Part shown: positions 3,878 to 62,505 of the stretch, piece after piece
Layout of the letters: each line of letters starts with the position of its first letter
How positions within the stretch are numbered: position 1 is the first letter of the stretch
Source of the DNA: a virus
Virus record (IMG/VR): IMGVR_UViG_3300045988_180412
Coordinates: 1 to 64,000 of that record
Length of the DNA: 64,000 bases
Reading direction: 5' to 3' (one strand)
Translations under genes and position numbers: made by a program
The notes under the pieces: model-generated
Told to the model about the DNA's origin: nothing
The model's database searches: none
The model's input: the letters and a program-made list of their open reading frames with translations, nothing else

Positions 3878-3917
3878 CGTCAGCCCGTTTGCGAAAATAG
3901 GCTGACGATTTTTTTTG
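3878..3917 (+). terminator. rho-independent terminator after dnaN
   Basis: 8-bp stem CGTCAGCC/GGCTGACG followed by ATTTTTTTT. Confidence 0.8.
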
Positions 3918-7374: not shown

Positions 7375-7933
7375 TACGCCTAACCTTTGGACTATACGCA
7401 ACAATATCGGGCGCGTAAAGGCTATCGCAATTCTCGTTAATGCCCTCGTCCAAACGGCGCGGCTTATAAATGTCGAAAACAACCTCACCGAGGCGCAAAT
7501 AGGCGAGCTTGCCAATGACATCCTCGACGAATACGGCTTCCTTAAACCTGTCGAAGTCAAAACCGTACTCAAACGCGGTCTGCGCTCTAAAATCTTCGGA
7601 CGACTTGATTATAATATCGTAATCGAATGGTTCGACGATTACGCCTGTGAACGTACTCGCGCCGCAATGGACATCGCAGACCAAGAGGAAACACAAGCGC
7701 AAAATCAGCCCGTATCAGACACTTCTACTATCGGGTGGGAAGAATACCTGCTACTACTCAAAGAACGCGCCAAACGCGGCGAGAAAGCCGCACAAGATAT
7801 ACTCTCCGAGGTGTCGGACGGATACAAGCCGATTGTCGAACTCGGCCGACACCTTGATGCCCGAAAAAAGGAAATGGAATTTCTACAATGGAAAGCAAAA
7901 CGCAACAAACTAAAACAAAGTCAAAAGCAATAA
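7235..7933 (+). CDS. hypothetical replication-module protein (start uncertain: ATG 7235 or 7286)
   Basis: ORF 7181-7933 overlaps the end of the initiator gene in another frame. No NTPase motif seen. Confidence 0.5.
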   Translation: MNENKSTNAIIPLSEAAMTAMQLWNEQPLQYYAAMTPADIPTMVKADTPNLWTIRNNIGRVKAIAILVNALVQTARLINVENNLTEAQIGELANDILDEYGFLKPVEVKTVLKRGLRSKIFGRLDYNIVIEWFDDYACERTRAAMDIADQEETQAQNQPVSDTSTIGWEEYLLLLKERAKRGEKAAQDILSEVSDGYKPIVELGRHLDARKKEMEFLQWKAKRNKLKQSQKQ

Positions 7934-12697: not shown

Positions 12698-15600
12698 TTA
12701 AAGATTAGCCGCTACCCATTGCTTGGTCGTCTCGTCAAATTTATAGATACCCGTGGCATCGACTTTCAGTCCGAAGTTGCCTGCTCGCATAACCAATTTC
12801 CCTTCTTTACATAGAAAGGTTGTAGTTCCCCACGTGAAACGCACTCCGTCATTGCCTATGTTGTTGCCGGGAGACTCTCCGTAGCGCCCGTAGCCTTTGA
12901 CGTTCAGCGTCGATGGCGTAAGCTGCTCCGTAAAACTGCTCGTGGGTATGGTCGCGGCTGTGGTCGCAAGAATTATCGCGTATGTCCCGGCACTGCTTAC
13001 AACTTCGCTAAACGAACAAGCCGCACGATACGAATCGCCGTTCTTGGTTAATTGCAACATGCGCTCTTTGTACAACTGACCGTCTCGCGTAATTCGCGCA
13101 ACGACAGCACCGGACATAATGGTGTCTGGCATCGGGATGTCAAGGGTTATGGACGCCGAAATGGCCGAACCCGCCGTGAGCGGCTGGTCGCCGACCGCAA
13201 TAGTCGTAAGCGTTTTATTATCAAGGTATGCTCCATCGGGCAATGCGATCGACCCCATATCACCTGAGTTTTCCACTCGCTTATATGATATTGATACGGT
13301 CTTGGTCTGATTGAGGCTTACACTGCTTTGGCTCTCACTCGTAACATCGTCCCCGATGCTCTGATTGGTGATACGCAACAGGGTGTCGCCCGTATCGATG
13401 TCTTGCAGTTTCAGCCCTTCATCGTCCAGAATGACATTCTTGCCTACTTCCATAGTGTTCACTCCGAAACGGACGGTGTTATTGGCGGCGTAGGCCGTGC
13501 CGTCGGCTCGCACAAGAAATTTGGCCGCATTGGCCGATGCCGTGGGCTTGGCGGCATCTTCCATGACACCGCCTGCCCATAGCATAACGGCGCCGCCGCC
13601 GCCCCAAAGTCCGTTTATGCCTGCCCTGACGGTATAACCGCTTGTCGTCTTTTCGCCGACTTGTATCAAGGATGACAGTACCAAACCGCCGCTTACCGTT
13701 GTGCTTTGTCCTAACGCCTTGGTGATATAGTCCATATCGGTTACGCGGTCGGCACTGTCATGATTGTTGGGGCACCACGCTGTCGCTTTCTTGCCTTTTT
13801 CTATCTTGGGCTGCGAGATGTACACCGTGCCGTTGCGCTGTAAGTATATTCGCATAAACGCCCATTTGCCGGTCTCGGCGACCGTAAAGGTTCGCTCTAT
13901 TCTTACCCATTGACCTGCCGTAAGGTTGGGCTTGATTTGCACAGTGGTCGAATTGGCTACATTATAGTCTGATGTCGAACTGCCTATTACCATATTAACG
14001 GCATAATCAAGCGCGGACAGGTCATCACAACGCACATACACGCTTGCGGTATATTGTTCGCCGGGCGTTATAAGCAATGTGTCGGGCGTATACCACCCCC
14101 ATTGCACCATGCCGTAATATTTATCGGACGTGTTTCCGCTCGCGCTGAGTTTTACACTGTTGTATCCGTTGTGCTTGTATGCCTTATCGGTTATTACGGT
14201 CGCAATATTGCCGTTACTCGTCCAGCCTTTGCTGCCGCCCTCAAAGGCGCTGTTATACAGCATGTTCTCGCCTACATACGGCGCGTTGTCATAGACATAC
14301 TCGCCTATGCTTTGATTGCCGACTTTGCTCGTTACTTCAAGTGTGCAGTTGGTCGTTATCTTGCCGTCCAGCATCTCTAAGTATTGGTCGCCTTTATCGC
14401 CTATGAAGAAACGCGGCTTGCCGCCGTAAACACCCGTTTGCCGTCCGACATAGTAATACTCGTCCCCTGCCGCATCAACGCTGTCAAGACCCTCTATATA
14501 GCGCTCATAGCCGCCGCCGATAACGTCTCGAACTTTGACGTATTGACGCTCGGCATTGGTGTAGTTGCCGTATTGTACAAGTGTGTCGCCCGCACTCGGA
14601 ATGCCCGTGCCGTTGGTGATTGTCCCCGATAGGGTCAGATTGTCCAACCCTACGGCTGTCACTTTGCGCTTGTAGGTCTTTATGGTCTTATTCTGAGCAT
14701 CATAGCGCGTGCAATAGGCTACATCGCCAACCTCAAAAAGATTGGCTACACTGCCGCTTCGCTGGTCAAAATAGCATATGTAATCGCTGCCGCTCTTGAC
14801 CACGGAGTATACTTCCATATTGGCCGCACTTTCTATGATTGTACCACCACGCGCCGTTATTTGGTTGATAACGAGTGTGTTAACCTTTAATTCTCGCCGC
14901 GTTACAATATTGTCGGCCTCTAAAACCCATTCGCCGTTGGCGTTTTTATAAAAACCCCAGCCCGTGCCGTCAACGTTGCCCTTGCGAAAGTCGTCGCTCG
15001 TAAGCAAGGAGGCAAATTGTGTCGGCGATATACTTATGTCGCGTACACCGTCTTTACGCAGATATAGCTTATCGCCAATGGCGCGTACTATCTGCTCGGT
15101 GTTGCCTAACGACCCTAAACGCTTCTGTATTTCTTCTACGCTGTCGCTTAGCAAGGCGACACTGCTTGCCGAAGTCTCGTATTTATCGCTCAACACAATC
15201 TCTAAATCGGGCAACGGACTGCCGTCAACGTTAAAGGTCTTGGTGATGCTCTGTATGTACAGCGTCTCATACGACTTGTCGATTATCAGCTTGGGGTCGC
15301 GCAATCTAACGGTACAACCCTCGCGTATCTGCTCGAAAAGGGTGTATTCTCCTAAGCCCTCATCGTTCATGCGTACTTTGTCGGTCGTTACAACCCATGT
15401 CGGCTTGATATTGGCCGTGTCTTTGAGCTTTTCTTCTTTGTATTGTCGTAAGCGCTTTTCTGCCCATAGGGTATAGTCGTGCGTCATCTCCGTGCCGATA
15501 AACACAAAGTGGTCGCCTGCCTTGCCTTGCTGTTTTGTGTTCGGAACGTACATCCCCGTACTCTCTAAGTCTGCATCACTCTTGGCCAGCGTTATGCGCC

Positions 15601-32333: not shown

Positions 32334-32352
32334 TTGGAGTTATTAAAACTTG

Positions 32353-32424
32353 TAGCGGCGACAGGACTCGAACCTGCGACCTGCGGGGAATGAACCCGCC
32401 GAGCTGCCTCTGCTCCACACCGCT
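32353..32424 (-). tRNA. tRNA with CAU anticodon (Met, fMet or Ile2 cannot be told apart)
   Basis: Hand-folded cloverleaf. Acceptor AGCGGTG/CGCCGCT, D arm GAGC-AGAGGCA-GCTC, anticodon arm GCGGG-TTCATTC-CCCGC, T arm GCAGG-TTCGAGT-CCTGT. No encoded CCA. Position 37 is an unusual pyrimidine. Confidence 0.85.
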
Positions 32425-44928: not shown

Positions 44929-45123
44929 TCATCTCCAACTCCCCCTCTCCCCCCACAAAAGAAGAAGAAAAACCACGCCGACAAAAAAAACCAAACCACT
45001 CAGCCATACCCCAATCAATCTAAACTCGTTCAACACTTTCAGATCAATCAAAACCACGCTCAAACCACAAATCAACCAATTTAACCAATCAGCTCCATAA
45101 ATAATCCGGATTAAAGCAAACAT
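44929..45123 (-). CDS. possible small membrane protein (may be an artefact of the G-poor tract)
   Basis: 64-aa hydrophobic ORF in compositionally skewed DNA. Confidence 0.3.
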   Translation of the reverse strand: MFALIRIIYGADWLNWLICGLSVVLIDLKVLNEFRLIGVWLSGLVFFVGVVFLLLLWGERGSWR

Positions 45124-45204
45124 AACTCGTCAAGATTAAAACCAATCAAGATATTCCAATCAAAATAAACCCGTCAGCCACGCAAACAACCAACACGGCT
45201 CTGA

Positions 45205-45212
45205 CAAAATTA
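45205..45212 (-). promoter_or_regulatory. candidate leftward -7 box (TAATTTTG on the minus strand)
   Basis: CAAAATTA on the plus strand. A second candidate, TAAATTTG, lies at 45516-45523. Confidence 0.3.
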
Positions 45213-45734
45213 ATAATCAAAAACCAATCACCAAATATCCAAACATCCAAATTTTCTAAATTTAATCCTTTATTTATATTTATAATACTATAATACTATA
45301 ATATATACTATACTAACTATGTATATAGTTAGGATAGTTTCTCGCCTTTTCCTTAAAAATTTTTTTTAAGGCGAGAACTTTTCCCCGAAAAATAATACAC
45401 TCATACATATTCACTAAATAATATATTACTAACCAAATAGTTATATGTGTGTAGATTGGTGTGTATGTCTCCCCAATTTACCCCCTTTCGTGTACATAAA
45501 ATCACCTTTTTACCCCAAATTTACCCGATTTTTTATCCCAAAAATACCCCCTTTTCACCAAAAATCAACCACCATCCCCAAAACACCAAAATAACCTCCC
45601 ACAACAACACCCTCAACAACCCCAAATAATCCCATATTATCACAATCCCCATAGAACTTCTCTAACTACATTATCTGTCTTATCTAAATTTGGTTTACTC
45701 AAAAGTCAACCTGTTTTAGGACGACACAATCACC

Positions 45735-45829
45735 CATACACAACTAAACCATACACAACTAAACCATACACAACTAAACTAAACTAAACCAAACTAAACT
45801 AAACCAAACTAAACTAAACCAAACTAAAC
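45735..45829. repeat. two abutting 15-bp tandem arrays (CATACACAACTAAAC x3, then TAAACTAAACCAAAC x3.3)
   Basis: Read directly. Confidence 0.9.
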
Positions 45830-45837
45830 ACTCATCT

Positions 45838-45872
45838 CACAATCCACAATCCACAATCCACAATCCACAATC
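45838..45872. repeat. 7-bp tandem repeat CACAATC x5
   Basis: Read directly. Confidence 0.9.
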
Positions 45873-46261
45873 CCTTTATAATCCCTGTCTCTAACTTCTG
45901 ACCGCTCTTAAATCATACTCTTTTCTGCTCTTTTCTATTCTTTTGCTCTATTCTACTTTCTCCACTCTACCTCTCTTTTACCCTATTTTCAAAGCACTTT
46001 AATCGCGCATAACTTGCTGATGAGCAATCATAACTTTCTGATAATCAGTTGTAACGCATTGACAATCAATTGGTTATACCCAAATTTTAATAAAAAAATT
46101 TAGAATGGACGCACCTCCAAACCCCAAAAAAATCGGCTTTTTGACCCCCCGCACCCCTATATTTTTTTTGTAATTCATGATAATCAATGTGTTTGGGCTA
46201 ATGTATCGTTCGCCACTCCACTCCGAACCGTATTTGTAACTGTCTGAAAATCAGGCAGTTA

Positions 46262-46598
46262 CGTGTTTTTGCGTGTTTTTTACGCATTAATCATTTCCCG
46301 GCCGTCCCCACATCCTCCAAATTTACATAATCGTGGATTATAAGCCGGTTTGCGATTATCGTTTGCGTTTATTTTGAAATATGCTTATTAAAATCAAGCG
46401 TGATTATCTGTTTAGATCCGGAACGTTTTACGATTTAGCATGATTTGCATTTGCTAAAATCAAGTTTGCGCCGTTGTTGTTTTTGCGTGAAAGATACGCA
46501 AAGTTATTGAGAGTTGTTTAGTGGATTAATTATGTGTAAAATTTACGCAAAGCGTTGATATTGCCGGGTTGTGTATTTTTGTGTGTGTTATACGCAAA
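46262..46598. promoter_or_regulatory. operator-like array of TTTGCGT / ACGCAAA heptamers, including two N7-spaced inverted repeats
   Basis: TGCGT-N7-ACGCA at 46270-46286. Perfect TTTGCGT-N7-ACGCAAA at 46482-46502. Single copies at 46362, 46545 and 46592. Confidence 0.5.
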
Positions 46599-46695
46599 AT
46601 TTGGCTGTCTATGTCTGTTTTTGTCTATTAGTTAAATAATGTGAAATTGCCCGAAAATAATTGCTTAAATGCTTGACTTAATGAAAAATAGTCCG

Positions 46696-46703
46696 TACCT
46701 TTG
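46696..46703 (+). promoter_or_regulatory. -7 box TACCTTTG for the rightward early operon
   Basis: TAnnTTTG match 59 nt upstream of ATG 46762. Same octamer as upstream of terL. Confidence 0.5.
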
Positions 46704-46761
46704 CATGTAGAAAAGGGGACGAAATAAGCCCTATATATAACACTTAAAAAATCAAATCAAA

Positions 46762-47070
46762 ATGCGAAAAATCGAATCTGAAATGTATGCAGCCTTTAAT
46801 GCCGGCTACAACTGGGCAAAAAGCAATACACGCGTTGAGGTCTCAACCTCCGACGACGAGAAGCGCGTGCGCTGCTTTCTTTTCGGCAATATCATAGCCG
46901 AAAAAATCATAAACAAAAGCGTGTACATTAAGCGGTTTTTTACAAGTGGGTACAATACCGCAACCACTTGCAACCGCTTGAACGCCCTCGGTGCGAATGT
47001 CAGCCGCAAAGGCGGATATATCCACTATGCCGACGGCACCCCCGTGCAAGCGCATTATACCGCACAATAA
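46762..47070 (+). CDS. hypothetical protein
   Basis: 102-aa ORF, first gene after the promoter. Confidence 0.6.
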   Translation: MRKIESEMYAAFNAGYNWAKSNTRVEVSTSDDEKRVRCFLFGNIIAEKIINKSVYIKRFFTSGYNTATTCNRLNALGANVSRKGGYIHYADGTPVQAHYTAQ

Positions 47071-47184
47071 AACAAAAAAAACGCCCCGGCGCTAACTTCA
47101 CAGCCGGCGCCGGGGCTAACTTAAAAAATCAAATCACTGCAAAGGTACGATATTTCGGCCTTTGCGCAAAATCAAAAAATCACA

Positions 47185-47424
47185 ATGAAAGTCACACTAA
47201 ACAAAAAGACCTCCGGGGGGTATTTCCCCGAAACGGTCAACGTTGAGTCGATTACTTGGGGGTTTGCCTCAAAAACCGCAACGCTACATATTGCCCCCGA
47301 GGAGTTTACGGAAAAATTTCAAGCGGTTGCCTTTGCCCAAATGTATGGTACCCGTATTTCCTTTGCGGCAACAATAGATATAGAAGTAAATAGCGAATAT
47401 ATATCCGACATATATTTCAGCTAA
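47185..47424 (+). CDS. hypothetical protein
   Basis: 79-aa ORF. Confidence 0.55.
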   Translation: MKVTLNKKTSGGYFPETVNVESITWGFASKTATLHIAPEEFTEKFQAVAFAQMYGTRISFAATIDIEVNSEYISDIYFS

Positions 47425-47434
47425 TCCGAATAAT

Positions 47435-47478
47435 CACCCGGCCGGTGCTTTTGGCGTGTTCGACTCGCGCCCGGGGTG
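47435..47478 (+). ncRNA. tRNA-like minihelix (acceptor-like stem plus T-arm)
   Basis: CACCCGG...GGCGTG-TTCGACT-CGCGCC-CGGGGTG. The T-arm is nearly identical to the one at 61074-61090. Confidence 0.4.
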
Positions 47479-47584
47479 CAAAGAAACAGTCGGCCCGGCG
47501 ACTATAAACAGGCATTAGGCCGTGCGCGTGGGCGGAAAATCCGCCCGGTTGTACTAAATAAATAAATCCTAAATAAATACAGCT

Positions 47585-48169
47585 ATGCAGAAAAATATTA
47601 TTTGGTCGTCAGACTACTATTTTGACGACTCCGCCCGCAAAGAGTTTGAGGACTACATCCAAACAGAATGCGGCTACATGCCGGACGACTCCGACTGGCA
47701 AAACGAAGTAAATGCACACATCGAAGATGAAAGGCTAAACCTTTCGGCGGACATCCCCGGCAACGGCTGCATTATAGCCGTTATTGACGCTGGCCGCTGG
47801 AATGGTCGCTATATATCCGCCACTCTATGCGGATATTCCCCCGCGCATATCTTTGACCTCGCGGAGGACGACAACGAGTACTATTGCGACGGCCTGAACG
47901 TGTGCGCACGTCTTGCGCACCACGACGGCACGCATTACGTTACATACCGCGTCGCGCCGGATATTGAGACTGCAAGGCGTATTGTTGACGGCCTACAAAG
48001 TGGCCGCATATCCGCCCGTACAGCAATGCGACAAACAAAGAGCCTCGCGCCACACGTTGCCAAAATATACGGCTGGCATGTAGATGGGCGGTTGACGCCA
48101 AAACGCGCCGCAAAACGCGTGGCACGCCACTACAACAAGCACATACACGCACAAAGACAATACGCGTAA
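47585..48169 (+). CDS. hypothetical protein
   Basis: 194-aa ORF. Confidence 0.6.
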   Translation: MQKNIIWSSDYYFDDSARKEFEDYIQTECGYMPDDSDWQNEVNAHIEDERLNLSADIPGNGCIIAVIDAGRWNGRYISATLCGYSPAHIFDLAEDDNEYYCDGLNVCARLAHHDGTHYVTYRVAPDIETARRIVDGLQSGRISARTAMRQTKSLAPHVAKIYGWHVDGRLTPKRAAKRVARHYNKHIHAQRQYA

Positions 48170-51968: not shown

Positions 51969-53138
51969 CTACCGCTTACCGTAAAGCACCCAATCAAGCA
52001 CTCGCCGATTAGCTTCGTCCACTTTGGCGTTGTCATAGTCGATATAAACATCCGTAATCGCAACACCGAAGGAGTGGCCTAATGCTTGGCTTATAATATC
52101 TTTTGGTATGCCAATACTGTATGCTATGGTCGCCCATGAGTGCCGCGCCCAATACAGCGTTAAATCATCACGCCCGGCACACTTTCTAAGTGCTGTGGAG
52201 ACGGCATTGCACATAGCATGTCGGGTACTCCACATGTCCGCAAACGTAAGCAACCGGCCATGCTGGTCTGACTTGTAGCGGTTTATTATTTCCAACGCTT
52301 CCGGCTCAACCTTGATACTGTACTGCTTGCGCGTCTTACAGCGCTCATACTCGATTCGACCATCAGTCGTTAAGCATTCAAGCCGAAGCATGTCTACACT
52401 ATTAATGCCGATAAGCATAAACGACAACTTAAAGACATCAAGTGCGACACGTGCGCGAGTACTACTTGGCGTAAGCGCAAATATAGTACGTATGACATCA
52501 ACTGGCAGCGAGCGTTTACGCGTTTTCGGTCTCCGTACAATTCGGGGCAATTGGATAAACGGATCGCGGTCTATAATCTCATTGCGTATAGCCTCGCGAA
52601 TAACCGCGTGGATACAGAACATATAATTGGAGATTGTGCCCAAGCTATAATCTTGACTGTATAACCAATTCAGATAGCGGCGCAATAGGTTATAATCAAT
52701 CTCTTGTATTAGCATATACTCTACATTCGCCTCATAACGCATTAGCGCATTCAAAGCGACCCTGTAACACTCTTGTGTCGCTTTGCGGCGGCGGCTTTTC
52801 ATGAAGTCGCGATATAGCGTAACAAACCGACATTCTTTTTCTATCTGTCGCCCGAACAGCTTATTGGCAACACGCTCTTTAATTTCGGCGACATCCATAA
52901 ATCGACCGCCTTGTTGATATATCTCCATTTTAAGCGCGTCTAACTGCTTAATCCAATAAGCTAAGACATTCGCAAGACGTTCGAGACGCTTAGGCGGATT
53001 AGGCGACAGCGCGAGGTCTAAGTCAAGCGGAGGCAAGTACATATCTGTTGCGAGTTCGGCCTTTCGGCGGTTGTTGGTGATGCGGATACGGACGTTGTTA
53101 CATCTCCGTTCATCGCATACAAGCTTCATTGTTATCAT
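51969..53138 (-). CDS. int: tyrosine recombinase / phage integrase
   Basis: 389 aa. SAM-like N-terminal domain. C-terminal YWARHSWAT...LGHS...DVYIDYD (R-H-R-Y type catalytic pattern). Confidence 0.9.
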   Translation of the reverse strand: MITMKLVCDERRCNNVRIRITNNRRKAELATDMYLPPLDLDLALSPNPPKRLERLANVLAYWIKQLDALKMEIYQQGGRFMDVAEIKERVANKLFGRQIEKECRFVTLYRDFMKSRRRKATQECYRVALNALMRYEANVEYMLIQEIDYNLLRRYLNWLYSQDYSLGTISNYMFCIHAVIREAIRNEIIDRDPFIQLPRIVRRPKTRKRSLPVDVIRTIFALTPSSTRARVALDVFKLSFMLIGINSVDMLRLECLTTDGRIEYERCKTRKQYSIKVEPEALEIINRYKSDQHGRLLTFADMWSTRHAMCNAVSTALRKCAGRDDLTLYWARHSWATIAYSIGIPKDIISQALGHSFGVAITDVYIDYDNAKVDEANRRVLDWVLYGKR

Positions 53139-56112: not shown

Positions 56113-56690
56113 GTCCGAGGAGAGGCAACGGCCTTACGGTTGCCACGCGGGACTCGCGAATAGCGAGATACAGAGACTGCGATAGTGCCTGCTGATGAGC
56201 ATACAGTACGGGTAGCACCCGAAAGCTCCGCCGAGGTCGGCGCTCCTTGAAGCCAAATGACGGCTTACAAGTGAACCGGCAAACCAAGCCGCTGCAATAC
56301 CGAGCGGCACGACATAGGGAGAGGCGAAAGATACCGGAACAGAGCAATAGGCGTTGACATGTCCGCCGACAGCATCCGGGGCAAATGTGCGGAGAGTAGC
56401 GTCTCCGCGATGACATACGGCGGCATAAACAGACGTCAATGGCGAGGTACAGCCTTTGCCGCCGAGGTATTGACAAAGATTAGAAACTTTGGTTTCTATA
56501 TATATAGCCGCAGCTCGCGAAGGCGTTAAGACCCCATCAGAACCTGCTGCGGCACTAAGGCCGACCAACCCTGACCACCCTCGAAAGTATGCGCGATAGG
56601 ATAGCCGCGCATCAGGACATCGCAGACAGCTTTGGCTGTGCTATTCGGAATTTGAGGACGCTGTGCGCGGTTCGACTCCGCGCCGAGGGA
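56113..56690 (+). ncRNA. candidate large structured ncRNA ending in a tRNA-like module
   Basis: ~580 nt between same-strand genes. GC-rich. Only antisense, Arg/Cys-rich ORFs. Many local helices. The 3' module is at 56578-56690. Confidence 0.35.
56578..56690 (+). ncRNA. tRNA-like module 1
   Basis: Acceptor CCCTCG/CGAGGG. D-like hairpin ATGCGCG-ATAGGATAGC-CGCGCAT. T-arm CGCGG-TTCGACT-CCGCG preceded by GGAC. No 7-nt anticodon loop. Confidence 0.45.
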
Positions 56691-56718
56691 CACAACATCA
56701 ACTAACACAAACAAGACA

Positions 56719-57060
56719 ATGAGGAAATACAAATTAACAGACGAAACAATTCAAATCACGCGTAACGGTGTGGAAGTAACGCTACACCAAATTGAGGCGC
56801 TGCGAGACTTCGGGGTCGTGAAAGCAGGCGAGAAAGGCGGCTTTATAGAGCGCGAGGCTAACCTAAGCCACGATGGTGACTGCTGGGTCTACGACACCGC
56901 AAAAATTTATGATAATGCCAAGGTGTACGGCAACGCATGGATATTCGGCTGCGCCGAGGTGTACGACACTGCCGAGGTGTACGACAACGCCAATATCTAC
57001 GGCTGCGCCAAGGTGTACGGCACGTCTAAGGTATACGGTGACATCGTGCTGTCTAAGTAA
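56719..57060 (+). CDS. hexapeptide-like repeat (beta-helix) protein
   Basis: 113 aa. Repeats VYDTAKIYDNAKVYGNAWIFGCAEVYDTAEVYDNANIYGCAKVYGTSKVYG. Confidence 0.65.
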   Translation: MRKYKLTDETIQITRNGVEVTLHQIEALRDFGVVKAGEKGGFIEREANLSHDGDCWVYDTAKIYDNAKVYGNAWIFGCAEVYDTAEVYDNANIYGCAKVYGTSKVYGDIVLSK

Positions 57061-57093
57061 TAAAGTAATAAATAGCCCTATTAATAATCAACT

Positions 57094-57318
57094 ATGAAAT
57101 TCGTAAATAAAACGATGATTGCAGCCGCAACGATACTGACATCCGTATGCGGCTTTTTCATGGCTTTTGCCTACGGCTGGACAAACCAAAATTATTGGTT
57201 TGTTCTCGGCGGTCTTGTTCTAATGGTTGCGCCGTGGCTTATAGCCGTGTTTATCGGCAAATTAGGGAAATTGAAAGAAATAATATTCCCCGACCCACAA
57301 GATGAGGATATATACTAA
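57094..57318 (+). CDS. small membrane protein
   Basis: 74 aa with two TM helices. Confidence 0.55.
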   Translation: MKFVNKTMIAAATILTSVCGFFMAFAYGWTNQNYWFVLGGLVLMVAPWLIAVFIGKLGKLKEIIFPDPQDEDIY

Positions 57319-57455
57319 ACATATGTCTAAACAGTGTTATTTTTAGCTATTTTTATTCCATGGCGGAGAGACCGAGAGAGGTCGTAAAATCCGCCAACAG
57401 GATTGGTTGCGAATAGCTTAGCCGATGCCGTCCGTGAGAATAGCATCGGCTTAAT

Positions 57456-57543
57456 GGGCATGGCAGACCGCAAGCATCGTTGCGAGTATTACTCGTGCGT
57501 CAAACAGCGGTGCTTGTCTGCGGTTCAACTCCACAGATGCCCA
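57456..57543 (+). ncRNA. tRNA-like module 2 (88 nt)
   Basis: Acceptor GGGCAT/ATGCCC. Hairpins CGCAA-GCATCG-TTGCG and CGAGT-ATT-ACTCG. T-arm TGCGG-TTCAACT-CCACA with one mismatch. Confidence 0.4.
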
Positions 57544-57625
57544 CGCGAACACTCATATGCAGTAAGTTGATTAGACATCAGACATTAGACGCTTGGTGGT
57601 CTGCGAAGATAGCCAAGCATTATAC

Positions 57626-57735
57626 GGAATAACAAAGCACGGATAACGGATGCCCGTGCAAGGCTTGACGGCGACTTGACAGTGCGCGACCGAGGCCTTT
57701 TTAAGCTATCCCGAGTTCGATTCTCGGGTATTCCT
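57626..57735 (+). ncRNA. tRNA-like module 3
   Basis: Acceptor GGAATA/TATTCC. D-like hairpin GCACGG-ATAACGGATGC-CCGTGC. Perfect T-arm CCGAG-TTCGATT-CTCGG. Confidence 0.45.
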
Positions 57736-57772
57736 CAAAGTGTTCATATAGGGTTTATGTATTTTCGGCATT

Positions 57773-57818
57773 ACGGACGGGCTATTGCATGGTTAGTCCG
57801 TCCGTGTGCCGATTTTTT
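57773..57818 (+). terminator. possible terminator after module 3
   Basis: ACGGACGG/CCGTCCGT stem. The T6 run starts 7 nt downstream. Confidence 0.4.
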
Positions 57819-57828
57819 ATTAGTATTC

Positions 57829-58182
57829 ATGGGAAAAAAAACTGTTACAGAAGCGGAGCTTGCGTATATCCGCCAAAACGCTTCGACCATGAGTTCGCGC
57901 GAAATGCGCATAGCGCTTGGCCTGCAACACTCGTGGCAACTTCGCTATCGCGCAAGGCTTGCAGGTGTAAAGTTGCAACCCTCGCTGCGCAAAAACGCGC
58001 ACCTGCAACGCAGGTTGTCTCAACAAGAGAAAAGCTGGCTTGCGGCAAATTATAGGCACGTAACCATGCACTTTATACATAGGTTCTTGGGGATAAGCTG
58101 GAAAGCGTTATACCGAGAACTCAACGCAATGGGATTCTCTAAATCCCGACCCCTGACAAAAAACCAACCAACTAAACAATAG
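57829..58182 (+). CDS. hypothetical basic protein with two HTH-like segments
   Basis: 117 aa from ATG 57829 inside ORF 57676-58182. Confidence 0.55.
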   Translation: MGKKTVTEAELAYIRQNASTMSSREMRIALGLQHSWQLRYRARLAGVKLQPSLRKNAHLQRRLSQQEKSWLAANYRHVTMHFIHRFLGISWKALYRELNAMGFSKSRPLTKNQPTKQ

Positions 58183-58188
58183 ACATCT

Positions 58189-58437
58189 ATGACAATTGAA
58201 ACTAAATTCAGCCTCGGCCAAAAAGTTTATTGGCTTGAAGGCCACGAGGCGCTCAGCGCACGTGTAACGCGCGTAAGCGTAAATGAACAAGGCAGCATCT
58301 ACTATGGAGTCCTTGTCGGTGATGCAGATCTGCGGTTTATGGCCGAGAGTGAGCTTAAAGGCTCGCTTGATGCTATCTATCAAGAACTTAGCGAAACATT
58401 GAGCGCTGTCAAAGAACAAATGGCCAACGGCTTATGA
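58189..58437 (+). CDS. hypothetical protein
   Basis: 82-aa ORF with an ATGA overlap to the exonuclease gene. Confidence 0.55.
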   Translation: MTIETKFSLGQKVYWLEGHEALSARVTRVSVNEQGSIYYGVLVGDADLRFMAESELKGSLDAIYQELSETLSAVKEQMANGL

Positions 58438-59387
58438 TGATAGAGTCGACCATCTACGGTCTGCCAAACGGCGAATATCACCGTGGTGAGCCGTATAATA
58501 AGTACATCAGCAGCAGCCAAATCAAGGACTATGCAAAGTCCCCGGCCTACGCTAAATGGCATCGGGAGCATCCCGATGACGAAAGCGGCAACGCGGCGTT
58601 GGCCTTTGGCTCGCTGTTCCACGATTGCCTTGCGAGTCTTGCGGGCGGTCAAAGTTTGACCGCGTGGATAAGCGGCACGGCTGTGTTCGACGCCCCCGTA
58701 AACGACAAAACGAGGCAACCTTACGGCGCAACGACCAAGCGCTATGCGGAGGCTTACGAGGAGTTCTTGCTCGCCAACGTTGACAACCGCATTGCTTCGA
58801 GCGCAGATCTGCAACTTATCCGCGACATGGTGTCGGCATTATTGGATGACCGAACCGAAACAGGCAAGACCGTCCGTAAGTTGCTTAAATGGGGCAAGCC
58901 CGAAGTAAGCCATTTCCTCGTATTCGAGGGTTGCAAATTCAAGTGCCGCCCCGACCTCGAAACACGCAAAAAAATTGTGGATTGGAAAACCACAACCCTT
59001 GACGCTTTCGACGAGGACAGCGTAAATAGAGTAATCCTGAAATACGGCTACCATATCAGCGCCGCAATGTATCAGTGGCTTGTCCACGAAATTACGGGCG
59101 AATGGAAGTCGTTTTACCTCGTGCTTGTATCTAAGCAAGCACCCCATGACAGCGTAATCGTCTGCATGGACGATTGGGCTTATCGACACATCTCCGAAGC
59201 CGACTATACGGCATTAGGCCCCGGCGCTTACGAGTTCGCTAAGCTCCGCGATTTACATATGCAATGCGTAAAGAGCGGCGAATATCCGACCGCCGAGGTG
59301 TTTATAGATAAAAGAGACGGTGAGGCGCCTATAATGAACATTCAACCCCCGTCTTACGTTACACGAAAGTACATCGACGAAATATGA
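58434..59387 (+). CDS. PD-(D/E)XK family exonuclease (recombination exonuclease partner of RecT)
   Basis: 317 aa. ...KFKCRPDLETRKKIVDWKTT... D...D-x-K motif. Immediately upstream of recT and overlapping it. Confidence 0.65.
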   Translation: MMIESTIYGLPNGEYHRGEPYNKYISSSQIKDYAKSPAYAKWHREHPDDESGNAALAFGSLFHDCLASLAGGQSLTAWISGTAVFDAPVNDKTRQPYGATTKRYAEAYEEFLLANVDNRIASSADLQLIRDMVSALLDDRTETGKTVRKLLKWGKPEVSHFLVFEGCKFKCRPDLETRKKIVDWKTTTLDAFDEDSVNRVILKYGYHISAAMYQWLVHEITGEWKSFYLVLVSKQAPHDSVIVCMDDWAYRHISEADYTALGPGAYEFAKLRDLHMQCVKSGEYPTAEVFIDKRDGEAPIMNIQPPSYVTRKYIDEI

Positions 59388-60304
59388 AAGAGGAAGAAAC
59401 AATACAGCAACAATCCGCCGAAACGCCGCAGGAGCAGCCGCAAACGCAAGCCGTTGCGGTCAAGAAAGACGCCTCCCCCGAGCGCACGGCGGAAGCTATT
59501 AAGCGTCTGCCTGCCGAGTTGCAGGGCATACGCAATCTGTTTGCACAGCCGTGGGAGAGTTTCCGCGCGGCTTTTGCTGACCCGCAAGAGGCCGACCGCA
59601 CGATGCAGCGCGAAATCACCTACGCAGCGCAAGCGATGACGTCTAATAGTTATCTTATAGAGTGTGCGGCTAAATTTCCGCAGGACTTCGTAAACGCGCT
59701 GAAAAATGTCGCGTTGAGCGGCTTATCATTGTCTCCGACACTCAAACAAGGCTATCTTGTGCCCTTCAAAGGCCGCGTAACCTTTATGCCCTCCTATATG
59801 GGCATGGTTGACCTGCTTAGCAACAACGGCCATATCAAGAAGATAGAGGCATTTTTGGTTTTTGAGGGCGATGAGTTTACCATGACGCACGGCACAAACG
59901 AAAGTCTTGTACATAAACCCAATCCGTGGGGGGAACGCTCCGAAAAGACGCTACTCGGCGGCTATTGGATAGCGACCCTTGCAGATGACACAAAGCTGTT
60001 CGACAATATGACCAAGGCGGAAATCGACCAAATAAAGATGCGGTCGCCGTCCGTTGCCGGAAAGAAGTCCTCGCCGTGGGATAGCGACTATCTGGCAATG
60101 TGTCGCAAGACGATATTGCGGCGCGGATTCAAATCCCTGCCCAAGGGCACTATCAGCGATGACCGCATTAAGGTTATCGAGGCCGTATTCGATTATGACG
60201 AAAAAGCCGAGCAAGACTGGGTTGCACGTCAGAAACAAGCCAATAAACGCACAAACGCTGACTTCGATGAGGACGGCGAAGTGCAATACGAGGAAATAAA
60301 CTAA
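59384..60304 (+). CDS. recT: RecT-family single-strand annealing protein
   Basis: 306 aa. ...SGLSLSPTLKQGYLVPFKGRVTFMPSYMGMVDL... RecT core pattern. Confidence 0.8.
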   Translation: MKEEETIQQQSAETPQEQPQTQAVAVKKDASPERTAEAIKRLPAELQGIRNLFAQPWESFRAAFADPQEADRTMQREITYAAQAMTSNSYLIECAAKFPQDFVNALKNVALSGLSLSPTLKQGYLVPFKGRVTFMPSYMGMVDLLSNNGHIKKIEAFLVFEGDEFTMTHGTNESLVHKPNPWGERSEKTLLGGYWIATLADDTKLFDNMTKAEIDQIKMRSPSVAGKKSSPWDSDYLAMCRKTILRRGFKSLPKGTISDDRIKVIEAVFDYDEKAEQDWVARQKQANKRTNADFDEDGEVQYEEIN

Positions 60305-60512
60305 GGTCGTAATCCCTGCACAAGAGAGTGCGAAACAGGCGCGTCCTGTTCGGGCGCAAATCATTAATGTTATGGAGGGCGTGTGGTCTAAGATAAGACG
60401 GCATACGAATATTAACCTTAGATTAGGTTAGTGCCAAATAAGCCGTGTGCAAATTCGGAATTAAGTCCCGACACGCCTGCAAATTTACCATTGTTTGTTT
60501 AACTATATTATT

Positions 60513-60686
60513 ATGAAAGAGTTGATTAGCAAAATCTCTGAGTTGTTCGAGGTGTTTTCCTCAAACGCCGTCAAGGCGCAAGCAGGAAACAAAGCTGCCG
60601 GCGCACGCGCACGCAAAGCTTCCCTCGAAATCGAAAAAGCCTTGAAAGAGTTCCGTAAAACTTCCGTTGCCTACGGCAAGGAGTAA
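60513..60686 (+). CDS. histone H1-like (Hc1 family) DNA-binding protein
   Basis: 57 aa. MKELISKISELFEVF...GNKAAGARARKASLEIEKALKEFRK, typical of Bacteroidota Hc1-like proteins. Confidence 0.7.
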   Translation: MKELISKISELFEVFSSNAVKAQAGNKAAGARARKASLEIEKALKEFRKTSVAYGKE

Positions 60687-60702
60687 GTAACGCGGAACGC
60701 CT

Positions 60703-60766
60703 GCGGTGCGGAGTTCGTTTGGGATGCCGCTAATTAGCGGACAGGTTCGACCCCTGCCGCACCGCC
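60703..60766 (+). ncRNA. tRNA-like module 4 (short: 9-bp acceptor-like stem plus T-arm plus one hairpin)
   Basis: GCGGTGCGG/CCGCACCGC. Hairpin CCGCT-AATT-AGCGG. T-arm CAGG-TTCGACC-CCTG. Confidence 0.4.
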
Positions 60767-60847
60767 AACATAGGCAAGTCGATTACTATTACCATATTGA
60801 ATTATGTTCGTTTTTCTGCGCCGTCTGTGAAGATAGCGCGGTTTTAT

Positions 60848-60916
60848 GGGCGTCATGGTGAAACCCTTGTTTTTAGGCTTTTCAAGGGTATTGCGGTTCG
60901 AGTCCGCTTGCGCCCG
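60848..60916 (+). ncRNA. tRNA-like module 5
   Basis: Acceptor GGGCGT/TGCGCCC. Hairpin CCCTTG-(13 nt)-CAAGGG. T-arm GCGG-TTCGAGT-CCGC. Confidence 0.35.
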
Positions 60917-60996
60917 CACATAGGTTATATGTATGATGAGAAGAGTAAAGTGGATTTTGGAGTGTCGGGCTTGTGAAAGTCCGGCGCTCGTTTTTC

Positions 60997-61098
60997 GGGA
61001 CAACAAGCCGTGGATGCACGGAAGCCCACGGACGCCATCCTTCTGTCAGTGGCGTTGCAGGACACTGCCGCAAGCGCGTTCGACTCGCGCTTGTCCCA
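60997..61098 (+). ncRNA. tRNA-like module 6 (102 nt; perfect 7-bp acceptor and 5-bp T-arm)
   Basis: GGGACAA/TTGTCCC. GCGCG-TTCGACT-CGCGC. Hairpins CCGTG-GATG-CACGG, GACGCCAT-(10 nt)-GTGGCGTT, GCAG-GACA-CTGC. Too long and lacks a 7-nt anticodon loop. Confidence 0.5.
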
Positions 61099-61157
61099 CA
61101 TAAAGTTAATATTTCTTAAAAAATACGCCATTATTTGTTTGGCAAGATGCAAACCAT

Positions 61158-61165
61158 TAAATTTG
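61158..61165 (+). promoter_or_regulatory. -7 box TAAATTTG, with TTTG about 20 bp upstream
   Basis: Part of the 19-mer TTAAATTTGCGGCATCCAA, repeated at 62842. Confidence 0.55.
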
Positions 61166-61171
61166 CGGCAT

Positions 61172-61341
61172 CCAAACGGCAATTGACGCAAGTCTTTTGT
61201 CGCCAATAAAATTTCTACTATTGTAGATAAAAAGGCGGAAGTGTCGCGCCCTTCGGGGTTGCGTGAATTGAAACGCGATAAGCAAAGTAGGATTAAATTT
61301 TCCTTTCGCCGAGGGCAGGATATTATTCCTGCCCTTTTTTT
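61172..61341 (+). ncRNA. candidate sRNA (~170 nt) with its own promoter and strong terminator
   Basis: Bounded by the -7 box and by GGGCAGGA-TATTAT-TCCTGCCC plus T7. Contains a C(UUCG)G-type hairpin. No convincing ORF. Confidence 0.5.
61313..61341 (+). terminator. rho-independent terminator
   Basis: 8-bp GC-rich stem followed by TTTTTTT. Confidence 0.85.
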
Positions 61342-61485
61342 ATTCTCTAAGCGACTGACGCATTTGCGTTGGCCGCTTTTTTTAGCCAATTACCGACGAG
61401 GGGGATGTAGCGAAAACGCGACACCCTCCACAAAGAGTGGTATACAAGCAATGATTTCCAACCACCCACATAAACATAAAACAAA

Positions 61486-62331
61486 ATGATAAACAATATC
61501 GACAATTTATTTATGCCGGAAATAAACGAAACAAAGGCGGTGCAGCCACTTAAAGAAGTGGAAGTGGTAGGGCAGTCGTTCATTATCTACGGAACACCCG
61601 AAGAACCTTTGTTCAAGGCGAAAGACGTTGCAACTTTTATTGGGCACTCTGATGTGTCTATGATGATGCAGACGGTGGATGATGACGAAAAGCTGACCCA
61701 AACAATGTTTGTATCAGGTCAAAATCGAAACGTATGGATGCTGACAGAAAATGGTTTGTACGAAGTTCTTATGCAGAGCCGCAAACCAACAGCCAAACTG
61801 TTTAAGAAAGGCGTCAAGAAGATTCTACGCGAAATCCGAATGACCGGTGGCTATATCGCCGCTAAGGACGATGATTCGCCCGAGGTGATAATGGCAAAGG
61901 CGCTACAAATAGCCCAAGCCACCCTTGCACGACAAGAGTCAAGACTGCAACAACTCGAAAACACCAACACGCGTAACGAACAAACCATCTTAGAGCAAGC
62001 GCCAAAGGTGGACTACTACGACACCACGCTGCAAAGTGTTAATACTATGACCACAACCCAAATTGCAAAGGAATTGGGAATGGACGCGCACAGCCTTAAC
62101 AAGCAACTTAAACAAGCCGGCGTAATCTTCCGTCAATCGGGGATGTGGATGATGAAACAACCTTATGCAAGCTGGAATTTATCCGCGACACGCACACAGA
62201 CCTATACGCGGTCTGACGGAAGTATCGGGTCGTCAATGTATACCGTTTGGAACGAACGCGGACGGCGCTTCATCCACGCGTTGCACGACAATGGGTTTAA
62301 CGCCCGTAAAGCAAAGAATGCTATTGTATAA
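61486..62331 (+). CDS. antirepressor-type protein (Bro-N domain plus KilAC/ANT C-terminal domain)
   Basis: 281 aa. ...FIIYGTPEEPLFKAKDVATFIGHSDVS... Bro-N pattern. C-terminal ...YYDTTLQSVNTMTTTQIAKELGM...LNKQL... KilAC pattern. Confidence 0.8.
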   Translation: MINNIDNLFMPEINETKAVQPLKEVEVVGQSFIIYGTPEEPLFKAKDVATFIGHSDVSMMMQTVDDDEKLTQTMFVSGQNRNVWMLTENGLYEVLMQSRKPTAKLFKKGVKKILREIRMTGGYIAAKDDDSPEVIMAKALQIAQATLARQESRLQQLENTNTRNEQTILEQAPKVDYYDTTLQSVNTMTTTQIAKELGMDAHSLNKQLKQAGVIFRQSGMWMMKQPYASWNLSATRTQTYTRSDGSIGSSMYTVWNERGRRFIHALHDNGFNARKAKNAIV

Positions 62332-62334
62332 CCA

Positions 62335-62505
62335 ATGAAAATACCTGTATCTGAATACGTCCTTGCCAACATCCTGCGGCACTACGGCACACTGGCCGAG
62401 CGCTGCACCGTTCCGCGAGACGACCTTAAAGCCGTCAACGCCAAACGGCTTGCAGGCGAGGATTTACGGCGACTTAAACGATTATTAAAAGTAAGAAATG
62501 ATTAA
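62335..62505 (+). CDS. small hypothetical protein (56 aa, below the ORF-track cutoff)
   Basis: Hand-translated as MKIPVSEYVLANILRHYGTLAERCTVPRDDLKAVNAKRLAGEDLRRLKRLLKVRND. Overlaps the next start. Confidence 0.4.
   Translation: MKIPVSEYVLANILRHYGTLAERCTVPRDDLKAVNAKRLAGEDLRRLKRLLKVRND

Follow-up and report, generated by a model that had tools for sequence, protein, structure and literature searches.

Three tandem tRNA-like RNA modules without a canonical anticodon arm downstream of an Hc1-like gene in a temperate gut phage genome

A 64,000-nt stretch of viral DNA (IMG/VR virus record IMGVR_UViG_3300045988_180412, positions 1 to 64,000; hereinafter referred to as the window) raises the question of what kind of RNA is encoded immediately downstream of a gene for an Hc1-like histone-like protein of 57 amino acids (60513-60686, plus strand; PF07432, phrog_31787). 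A first-pass annotation had described three tRNA-like modules lying head-to-tail at 60687-61100. The three modules, referred to as modules 4, 5, and 6, were all recovered with every feature that had been ascribed to them. Here, we ask whether they are tRNAs, remnants of tRNAs, or structured RNAs maintained for their tRNA-like body, and by which route they may be produced.

Module 4 (60703-60766, plus strand) is a 64-nt mini tRNA-like element. Its terminal stem, GCGGTGCGG/CCGCACCGC, comprises 9 bp and corresponds to an acceptor stem of 8-9 bp, in accordance with the 64 nt and 9-bp acceptor-like stem of the first-pass annotation. It further contains the T-arm (A)CAGG-TTCGACC-CCTG(C), a D-like arm (GUUC/GGAU) with the loop GUUUG and a GG and, at the place of the anticodon arm, a short arm of 5 bp closed by a tetraloop (CCGCU-AAUU-AGCGG). 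Module 5 (60848-60916, plus strand) is a 69-nt tRNA-like element without a D-stem, in which the acceptor stem GGGCGT/GCGCCC (6 bp plus a C.U mismatch) is accompanied by the connector AUGGUGAAA, an inner stem of 6 bp (CCCUUG/CAAGGG) with a 13-nt loop, the T-arm (T)GCGG-TTCGAGT-CCGC(T), and a discriminator G. Module 6 (60997-61098, plus strand) is a tRNA-like element of class II shape, for which the previously described length of 102 nt, perfect 7-bp acceptor stem GGGACAA/TTGTCCC, perfect T-arm GCGCG-TTCGACT-CGCGC, and stem with a 10-nt loop (here 7-8 bp) were all reproduced. In addition, module 6 harbors a discriminator A, a 6-bp D-like stem with a 12-nt loop that contains GG and CACGGAAGC, and a 4-bp variable arm. 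No ORF was present between the units of the array (60703-61098).

The features shared with tRNAs are concentrated in the acceptor/T-arm half. In all three modules, the T-stem directly abuts the 3' acceptor strand, as in real tRNAs. Measured against the canonical 7 + 5 bp and UUCRANY loop, module 6 is perfect, module 5 has 6/7 acceptor and 4/5 T-stem pairs, and module 4 has 8-9 and 4-5 bp; G53-C61 is kept throughout, and the T-loops read UUCGANY. D-arm features are more variable, with a 4-bp stem and GG nearby in module 4, GG without a stem in module 5, and a 6-bp stem plus GG in module 6. A canonical anticodon arm, i.e., a 5-bp stem and a 7-nt loop with U33, is absent from all of them, and modules 4, 5, and 6 have loops of 4, 13, and 10 nt, respectively, at this place. 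Minimum-free-energy folds gave cloverleaf-like shapes, with z-scores of -2.4, -1.2, and -2.9 for modules 4, 5, and 6, respectively. CCA is encoded neither in modules 5 and 6 nor in the tRNA-Met of the window, which implies the route of RNase Z cleavage and CCA addition.

A loose scan for an acceptor stem plus T-arm was not significant on its own (approximately 6 hits per shuffled window; one 6-of-7 acceptor match within 100 nt), and we therefore relied on covariation between orthologues and on location. Relatives were retrieved with the RecT protein encoded just upstream (59384-60304). They included the L001 lineage (RecT of 93% amino-acid identity; identical contigs L019, L025, and L029), the L026 lineage (95%; identical contigs L027 and L028), and more distant relatives such as L024, a metagenome-assembled genome of Porphyromonadaceae (68%). 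In an alignment of 60290-61500 with L001 and L026, the modules were recognizable and the spacers between them were indel-rich. Across the seven modules that could be compared in the window, 17 base pairs had changed on both sides and 17 on one side, and 10 of 167 held a non-pair. In module 4, the ninth acceptor pair changed from G-C to A-U in L001 and L026, and the short arm was deleted in L001. In the same two lineages, module 5 had A-U in place of G-C at acceptor pair 3 and U-A in place of G-C at one pair of the inner stem. In module 6, the L026 copy differed by compensatory changes in acceptor pair 7 (A-U to G-C), in two pairs of the D-like stem, and in the variable arm (A-U to U-A). The covarying pairs thus included stems not needed by RNase P or RNase Z, namely the D-like stem and variable arm of module 6 and the inner stem of module 5. 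Loop lengths on the anticodon side shifted among orthologues, from 10 to 8 nt in module 6 and among 13, 14, and 16 nt in module 5.

When the acceptor stems and T-arms of 19 copies were pooled into one alignment, 92% of the cells paired, as compared with 56% after shuffling of partners and at most 54% after sliding by 1-3 columns; this value is partly ascertained, as the acceptor 5' strands were picked by best pairing, and the independent evidence is the orthologue comparison. Conserved pairs combined with shifting loops point to selection on the tRNA body and not on the anticodon. Judged from these substitutions, the modules are structured RNAs under selection for a tRNA body and not decaying pseudogenes. 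The first-pass annotation had named decay from ordinary tRNAs without structure-preserving substitutions as what would speak against it, and the compensatory changes in the L001 and L026 lineages contradict such decay.

Eight modules were counted in the window by a T-arm scan combined with reading of the sequence. All are located on the plus strand in intergenic positions and are co-oriented with early genes, as stated in the first-pass annotation, which had arrived at a count of seven. Hits with a consensus TTCGA loop fell in the approximately 15% of the window that is non-coding in 6 of 6 cases, and non-consensus hits lay mostly within ORFs. Module A (47435-47478, plus strand) is a weak acceptor/T-arm minihelix, the acceptor of which counts 5 bp, or 7 bp if a bulge is allowed, and is located 10 nt upstream of a Pistol ribozyme; its fold was no better than those of shuffled sequences (z = +0.5). 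Module B (56578-56690, plus strand), a 113-nt tRNA-like element, ends 28 nt before an ATG at 56719, and its acceptor pair 4 changed from U-A to C-G in L001. Module C (57456-57543, plus strand; 88 nt) has a 6-bp acceptor stem, and a C.A mismatch in its T-arm is restored to a pair in L026. Module D (57626-57735, plus strand; 109 nt) carries two inner hairpins and showed four compensatory pairs, including those that convert the T-stem CCGAG/CUCGG to UCGGG/CCCGA. Modules C and D form an array (57421-57818) of their own, in which no ORF separates the units, each unit is preceded by a hairpin capped by a GNRA tetraloop (57421-57450 and 57591-57618), and a terminator (approximately 57767-57818) follows module D. 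In layout, this array and that of modules 4-6 are similar to clusters of tRNA genes. Module 0 (60377-60479, plus strand), located between recT and the Hc1-like gene, ends 34 nt before the ATG at 60513. Its acceptor stem comprises 7 bp, its D-like arm reads GUCU/AGAC, and a further stem of 7 bp carries an insert of approximately 40 nt. Three pairs showed compensatory change, and the T-loop is degenerate, with AUUAAGU in the window and UUCAAGU in L001.

The T-arm of module 6 differs by one base from that of module A (47454-47470), as had been noted before. The duplication of one element that had been deduced from this similarity was not upheld, since the eight modules show no relationship in their acceptor stems and inner parts and the T-arm is the most constrained part of a tRNA, so that a one-base difference is no sign of duplication. 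A nested hairpin (57361-57397, plus strand; GGCGGA-GAGACCGAGAGAGGUC-GUAAAA-UCCGCC), which matched no Rfam family, lies at the start of the non-coding region of 530 nt containing modules C and D. Furthermore, a loose (U)CAUAUAG-like word was recognized by eye 5-20 nt 3' of modules 4, 5, C, and D and of their orthologues (CACAUAGG, UUCAUAUAGGG, and ACUCAUAUAG); the plain word CACATA was not enriched in the window (38 occurrences against 28.7 +/- 5.2 expected).

Known families did not account for the modules. ARAGORN identified only a tRNA-Met in the window (32352-32424, minus strand) and no tmRNA. Rfam searches of 60400-61500, 56400-57850, and 45000-47700, at gathering thresholds and at E<=10, returned neither a tRNA-clan nor any other family for the modules, including C4 RNA (RF01695) and Y RNA; in these stretches and the window, only the Pistol ribozyme and tRNA-Met were found. 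No ribozyme model matched at 60400-61500 or 56400-57850, and the only ribozyme match was Pistol at 47488-47553. BLAST of 58000-62500 against GenBank phages matched only a protein-coding piece of KilA-C/ANT. Exact scans of IMG/VR with the module-specific 16-mers GTTCGTTTGGGATGCC and CGGATGCCCGTGCAAG yielded the L001 contig as the only real match, the rest being chance matches inside ORFs, and an exact-protein look-up of the Hc1-like protein returned near-identical contigs only and no new lineages. No description of phage tRNA-like elements, decoys, or processing signals of this kind was found in the literature searched, the coverage of which was incomplete, and the main text of a 2017 catalogue of 224 RNA motifs made no mention of tRNA-like elements.

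The modules are set in a recurrent cassette. A hairpin stands before each of modules C, D, and 5. Its stem varies, but its loop of 13-14 nt, (S)GUCYGYGARRAUA, is conserved and folds as a helix of 3-4 bp with flanking bulges, capped by the GNRA tetraloop; a U-rich leader of 5-7 nt comes next. The hairpin directly upstream of module 5 (60816-60841, plus strand) has the loop CGUCUGUGAAGAUA and the leader UUUUAU and was terminator-like in the scan. The one directly upstream of module 6 (60960-60989, plus strand) is a variant form, with 13 bp, a GUGA tetraloop, and the sequence GUUUUUC after it; its L026 orthologue has the consensus loop GUUCGUGAGAAUA. Hairpins with a GUCUGYGAAGAUA loop occurred on the plus strand of the window at 3886, 57421-57450, 57591-57618, and 60816-60841. 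The 15-mer GTCTGYGAAGATAGC was found at 120 or more IMG/VR loci (L035-L154), most of them with a flanking covarying stem and a T-run. In gut phage contigs, the hairpin occupied two kinds of position: it followed ORFs, where it looked like a terminator, or it stood immediately 5' of tRNAs and tRNA-like elements. It matched no Rfam family, and its conserved loop suggests recognition by a trans-acting factor.

The association of the hairpin with tRNA-shaped RNAs was examined among the matches listed. A tRNA or tRNA-like element followed within 13 nt on the 3' side in 14 of 80 unique hairpins, where approximately 0.5 was expected. A combined pattern of the hairpin loop, 55-85 nt, and then GGTTCGANTCC occurred at 120 or more IMG/VR loci. 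The 50 unique bodies behind the hairpin comprised approximately 11 canonical tRNAs (Ser, Arg, Met, Glu, and Lys) and approximately 39 non-canonical bodies, and the latter formed recurrent families, e.g., a 68-nt RNA with a 4-bp stem and a tetraloop as the anticodon arm. Real tRNAs and tRNA-like elements have the same flanks, i.e., the hairpin, the U-rich leader, and, after N73, a C that usually precedes an A, and most lack an encoded CCA. In L024, which is prophage-like, a true tRNA-Cys lies beside tRNA-like elements with a 10-nt loop or an insert of approximately 45 nt at the anticodon loop.

The cassette also occurs in a cultured phage. BS-TP2 (L165, PQ571275), isolated on Bacteroides salyersiae BG8, carries the hairpin and a tRNA-like element with a 16-nt 'anticodon' loop at 1507-1627 of L165, corresponding to approximately 13694-13814 of PQ571275; the element is unannotated in GenBank. 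Two further elements were seen in BS-TP2: a DUF2693-FD RNA at 566-614 (Rfam RF02926, 75 bits), and a possible 190-nt element at approximately 1074-1262 with a perfect T-arm, the 5' acceptor strand of which overlaps the gp19 stop codon. Anticodon-less tRNA look-alikes constitute a class that is widespread in gut phages and apparently undescribed.

Parts of this class bear a specific identity signature. G1-C72, G2-C71, and G3.U70 together with A73 were present in 19 of 39 non-canonical bodies behind the hairpin and in none of 11 canonical tRNAs, again among the matches listed. G3.U70 and A73 form the alanine identity set of tRNA-Ala and tmRNA. The set spans three families of 68, 82, and 83 nt (L039, L070, L166-L168, L172, L173, L178, L193, L205, L210, and others), exemplified by a 68-nt GGGAGUU...AACUUCCA RNA, and in one of the families pair 4 covaries around the retained wobble. 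These families may be alanine-accepting tRNA mimics. Modules 4-6 lack the set, pair 3-70 being G-C or A-U, with G.U only in the L026 copy of module 4. Aminoacylation mimicry, which had been among the roles suggested for the modules, is accordingly plausible for parts of the class and is not supported by the identity set for modules 4-6; the class II shape and A73 of module 6 would be compatible with leucine identity.

The window corresponds to a temperate tailed phage, with genes for integrase, resolvase, RecT and a PD-(D/E)XK exonuclease, ANT antirepressor, RusA, tape-measure protein, portal, and terminase, and the host is most likely a Bacteroidales bacterium, as judged from L024 and BS-TP2. 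The tyrosine integrase gene (51969-53138) lies 3.4-8 kb from the modules, and the antirepressor gene (Bro-N/ANT; 61486-62331) lies downstream of the array. The Pistol ribozyme (47488-47553, plus strand; Rfam RF02679, 63 bits, E=1e-10) begins 10 nt after module A in one and the same intergenic junction, and its predicted G^U cut is located approximately 36 nt before an ATG at 47585; a search of viral contigs for relatives of the adjacent ORF returned none. Elsewhere, 45124-46761 is a 1.6-kb ORF-free region between minus- and plus-strand gene blocks, with A/C-rich runs and short tandem repeats (ACACAACTAAACCAT, CTAAAC, and CACAATC at approximately 45740-45870), and could represent an origin, terminus, or regulatory region.

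Module 6 is followed by a sigma-70-like promoter match (61183-61212), two solitary CRISPR repeats, and two terminators (61311-61385). The first repeat, AATTTCTACTATTGTAGAT (61210-61228, plus strand), is a Cas12a (V-A) repeat that is single-copy in the window, recurs in L026 (6779-6797), and is absent from L001; this 19-mer is identical to the functional Cas12a direct repeat DR4 (PMC11919711). The second, GTCGCGCCCTTCGGGGTTGCGTGAATTGAAAC (61243-61274, plus strand), begins 14 nt after the V-A repeat, is type I-C-like, and is kept in L001 (approximately 7770-7800) and L026. This 32-mer has 24 of 32 bases, including both termini, in common with a type I-C repeat (PMC5071653), and gave a weak match to Rfam CRISPR-DR9 (E=8). 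Solitary repeats are a known form of RNA anti-CRISPRs (PMC10651486; bioRxiv 10.1101/2024.10.29.618823). Both are therefore candidate RNA anti-CRISPRs, the V-A repeat being a candidate type V-A RNA anti-CRISPR of the Racr or Cracr type, and the array looks to be located in an island of anti-defence RNAs. In addition, 61100-61390 is near-identical to 6670-6960 of L026, where the modules just upstream are only approximately 80% identical, a mosaicism that suggests recent exchange of the repeat-bearing cassette.

How such modules may be produced can be considered from the enzymes that mature tRNAs. What RNase P, RNase Z, and the CCA-adding enzyme recognize is the stack of acceptor stem and T-arm together with the elbow, and not the anticodon. 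Modules 4-6 retain these features, with an acceptor stem coaxially stacked on the T-arm and, in most cases, a D-like loop with GG for the elbow; having lost the anticodon loop, they cannot decode. Since the modules keep these parts and are located in the cassette of genuine tRNAs, excision by the same enzymes is the most economical assumption. On balance, we consider it probable that modules 4-6 are derivatives of tRNA genes that are excised by host RNase P and RNase Z, giving non-decoding RNAs and trimming the neighboring transcripts.

Starting from the observed structures, compensatory conservation, shared cassette, and placement, the following course of transcription, cleavage, and product stability may be inferred. 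The modules would be transcribed from the plus strand together with the early genes; where the hairpins terminate efficiently, expression of the modules would need read-through. Host RNase P would cut at the 5' end of each module and RNase Z after the discriminator, followed by CCA addition, and genuine tRNAs in the same 'GNRA hairpin - U-rich leader - tRNA - N73-C-A' cassette would be matured likewise. Each pair of cuts would free a compact tRNA-shaped RNA of 64-102 nt, and the RNA on its 5' side would then terminate in a stable hairpin with a GNRA cap plus a U-tract. Where an ORF follows, the downstream mRNA would receive a short A/U-rich leader (28 nt after module B, 34 nt after module 0, and 36 nt after the Pistol cut). 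As for the freed product, we suggest, as a guess of low confidence, a non-translating decoy or sponge for host factors that recognize the tRNA body or 3' end, which is preferred because of the ORF-free tandem array, the selection on all stems, and the adjoining candidate anti-CRISPR RNAs, the last being the main reason, although still a weak one.

Several observations weigh against excision of the modules and a function of their products. The acceptor/T stack of module 4 comprises 13 bp and not 12, the fold of module 5 barely exceeds those of shuffled sequences (z = -1.2), and pairs 7-66 and 49-65 are mismatched in many copies of the pooled alignment. Module 6 is absent from the L001 lineage and hence dispensable there, and the covariation counts are small, with three distinct lineages per module. 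The hairpins before modules 5 and 6 resemble intrinsic terminators, and if they terminated efficiently the modules would rarely be transcribed. Finally, the processing steps are all inferred, and no result identified a target for a decoy.

The cuts alone might be what is selected. The modules would then be pure punctuation, comparable to t-elements, at which RNase P and RNase Z segment the early RNA and set mRNA ends, with the excised pieces as by-products. Much of the arrangement is as expected for such signals: the modules lie between genes and run in the same direction as their neighbors, 28-34 nt separate a module end from the next ATG, a self-cleaving Pistol ribozyme occupies an equivalent junction, the anticodon-side parts vary freely, and the upstream hairpins would shield the new 3' ends. 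One cut would do for this purpose, whereas modules 4-6 stand in tandem, uninterrupted by ORFs, and the array of modules C and D ends in a terminator of its own. Because of these ORF-free tandem arrays, the compensatory change in stems irrelevant to RNase P and RNase Z, and the conservation of whole families of such RNAs across many phages, it is suggested that the RNA itself matters, and we regard punctuation alone as possible but rather unlikely. Both may also be true at once, as for MALAT1/mascRNA, where product function and punctuation coexist. The shortlist of roles given in the first-pass annotation, i.e., RNase P/Z punctuation, decoy, and mimicry in CCA addition or aminoacylation, was retained, and computation separates none of them from the others.

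If the excised RNA is what matters, it could instead be a regulatory RNA on a tRNA scaffold, in which the inner arm works as an antisense sequence or aptamer and the tRNA body serves processing and stability. C4 RNA, which is processed by RNase P and controls ant in phages P1 and P7, is a precedent, and an antirepressor gene is found here downstream of the array; module D has kept the sequence of its inner part between lineages, and some relatives carry inserts of 40-150 nt. The duplex energies of the modules with all plus-strand start regions nevertheless remained at |z|<1 in 6 of 7 modules, with module 4 doing less well than its shuffled versions (z = +1.6), the ant leader paired weakly, exact complementary words of 9 nt or more occurred at chance frequency, no Rfam C4 match was obtained, and conservation across lineages does not extend to the loops of modules 4-6. 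An antisense role within the phage, considered for phage start regions only, was not supported, as complementarity was no better than that of shuffled modules, and a regulatory role of this type is unlikely.

A tRNA identity, present or past, was weighed in three forms. Functionless, decaying pseudogenes of ordinary phage tRNAs would fit the real tRNAs at comparable places in related prophages, the lack of module 6 in L001, and the degenerate module A and T-loop of module 0; with 17 compensatory pairs, modules far better conserved than the indel-rich spacers, and a tRNA-like shape that recurs in many independent families, this origin is quite unlikely. Working tRNAs of unusual type, such as frameshift or suppressor tRNAs with an enlarged anticodon loop or tRNAs with a short intron, are brought to mind by relatives that ARAGORN forces into 'tRNA-Arg(gcg)' or 'tRNA-???', and an 8-nt anticodon loop can read quadruplets. 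The loops of modules 4-6, however, measure 4, 13, and 10 nt, with lengths that change between close relatives and a tetraloop in module 4; to our knowledge, no bacterial splicing system exists for short tRNA introns, and no recoding was evident in the ORFs of the window. A decoding role is excluded by these loops, and working tRNAs are very unlikely. Phages with a tyrosine integrase often integrate into tRNA genes, and this phage has such an enzyme, so that tRNA 3' fragments, attP, or att scars might have been left as debris of integration; phage tRNA fragments have been discussed (PMC9897764). Against such debris, the modules hold both acceptor strands and whole folds, are present in eight copies at 3.4-8 kb from the integrase gene, and covary as RNA. 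The complete folds, together with the distance from the integrase gene, exclude an attachment-site origin, and integration debris is the most improbable of these origins.

Excision by host tRNA-maturing enzymes would resemble several known systems in part. The tRNA-like elements of MALAT1 (mascRNA) and MEN-beta are embedded in longer transcripts, where a cut sets the ends of the neighboring RNA and frees a small tRNA-like RNA. Plant mitochondrial t-elements are tRNA-like folds in longer transcripts that are recognized by RNase P and RNase Z (PMC1920247). The modules appear similar to both in presenting an acceptor/T-arm minihelix among co-oriented flanking genes; unlike these elements, which occur singly in organelles or eukaryotic nuclei, they belong to a DNA phage, are arrayed in tandem, and have a conserved GNRA hairpin as partner, and their cleavage is a prediction. 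The TMERs of murine gammaherpesvirus 68 (MHV68) are eukaryotic pol III units in which a viral tRNA-like element is followed by pre-miRNA hairpins. As in TMERs, virus-encoded non-decoding tRNA-like elements are arrayed beside hairpins and would be matured by host tRNA enzymes; in contrast to TMERs, the hairpin here precedes the tRNA-like element and looks like a bacterial terminator. The tRNA-like domain of tmRNA likewise has an acceptor stem and T-arm without an anticodon arm, and related phage families carry its G3.U70 and A73, but modules 4-6 have neither G3.U70 nor an mRNA-like domain.

Among phage RNAs, 'species 1/2' (RNA C/D) of the T4 tRNA cluster are small stable RNAs of unknown function that are processed by RNase P. 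The modules have no sequence relation to them, the host phylum differs, and the T4 RNAs are not described as anticodon-less cloverleaves. Like C4 of P1 and P7 (Rfam RF01695), the modules would be phage small RNAs upstream of an antirepressor gene with a 5' end made by RNase P; unlike C4, they show no Rfam match and no complementarity to the ant leader. Theta (HDV-like) ribozymes have been found beside gut-phage tRNAs (PMC10879173), and the pair of module A and Pistol (47435-47553) similarly joins a ribozyme with a tRNA-like element; it differs in ribozyme class, and modules 4-6 have no adjacent ribozyme. The bacterial Y RNA YrlA, of which some examples are phage-encoded, mimics tRNA in its T-arm and D-arm, with a Ro-binding stem replacing the acceptor, and is linked to rsr (PMC4201824). 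Unlike YrlA, the modules keep the acceptor stem, no rsr is present, and no Rfam match was obtained. The modules thus fall outside canonical tRNAs, C4 RNA, Y RNA, tmRNA, and all ribozyme families.

As a speculative extension, phages of gut Bacteroidales might possess a large class of anticodon-less mimics that arise from the GNRA cassette, are matured by the host, and in several families are alanylated, and that would serve as anti-defence decoys or sponges for effectors or toxins hitting the tRNA body, the 3' CCA, or aminoacyl-tRNA; in this phage, they would act next to the neighboring RNA anti-CRISPRs, and modules 4-6 would represent the class as three divergent members. Such elements are missed by standard annotation with ARAGORN and Rfam and are found in long 'empty' intergenic stretches of gut phage genomes. 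As BS-TP2 carries the same cassette, the question can be tested directly in a cultured phage. If the cuts occur as predicted, the cassette would be a natural counterpart of the synthetic tRNA-spacer arrays that release guide RNAs. The roles currently assigned to phage tRNAs are help with codon usage and the replacement of tRNAs destroyed by defence systems, and non-decoding bodies fit neither of these roles; they point to a use of the tRNA shape itself, in processing, in the sequestering of tRNA-binding proteins, or as amino-acid carriers outside translation.

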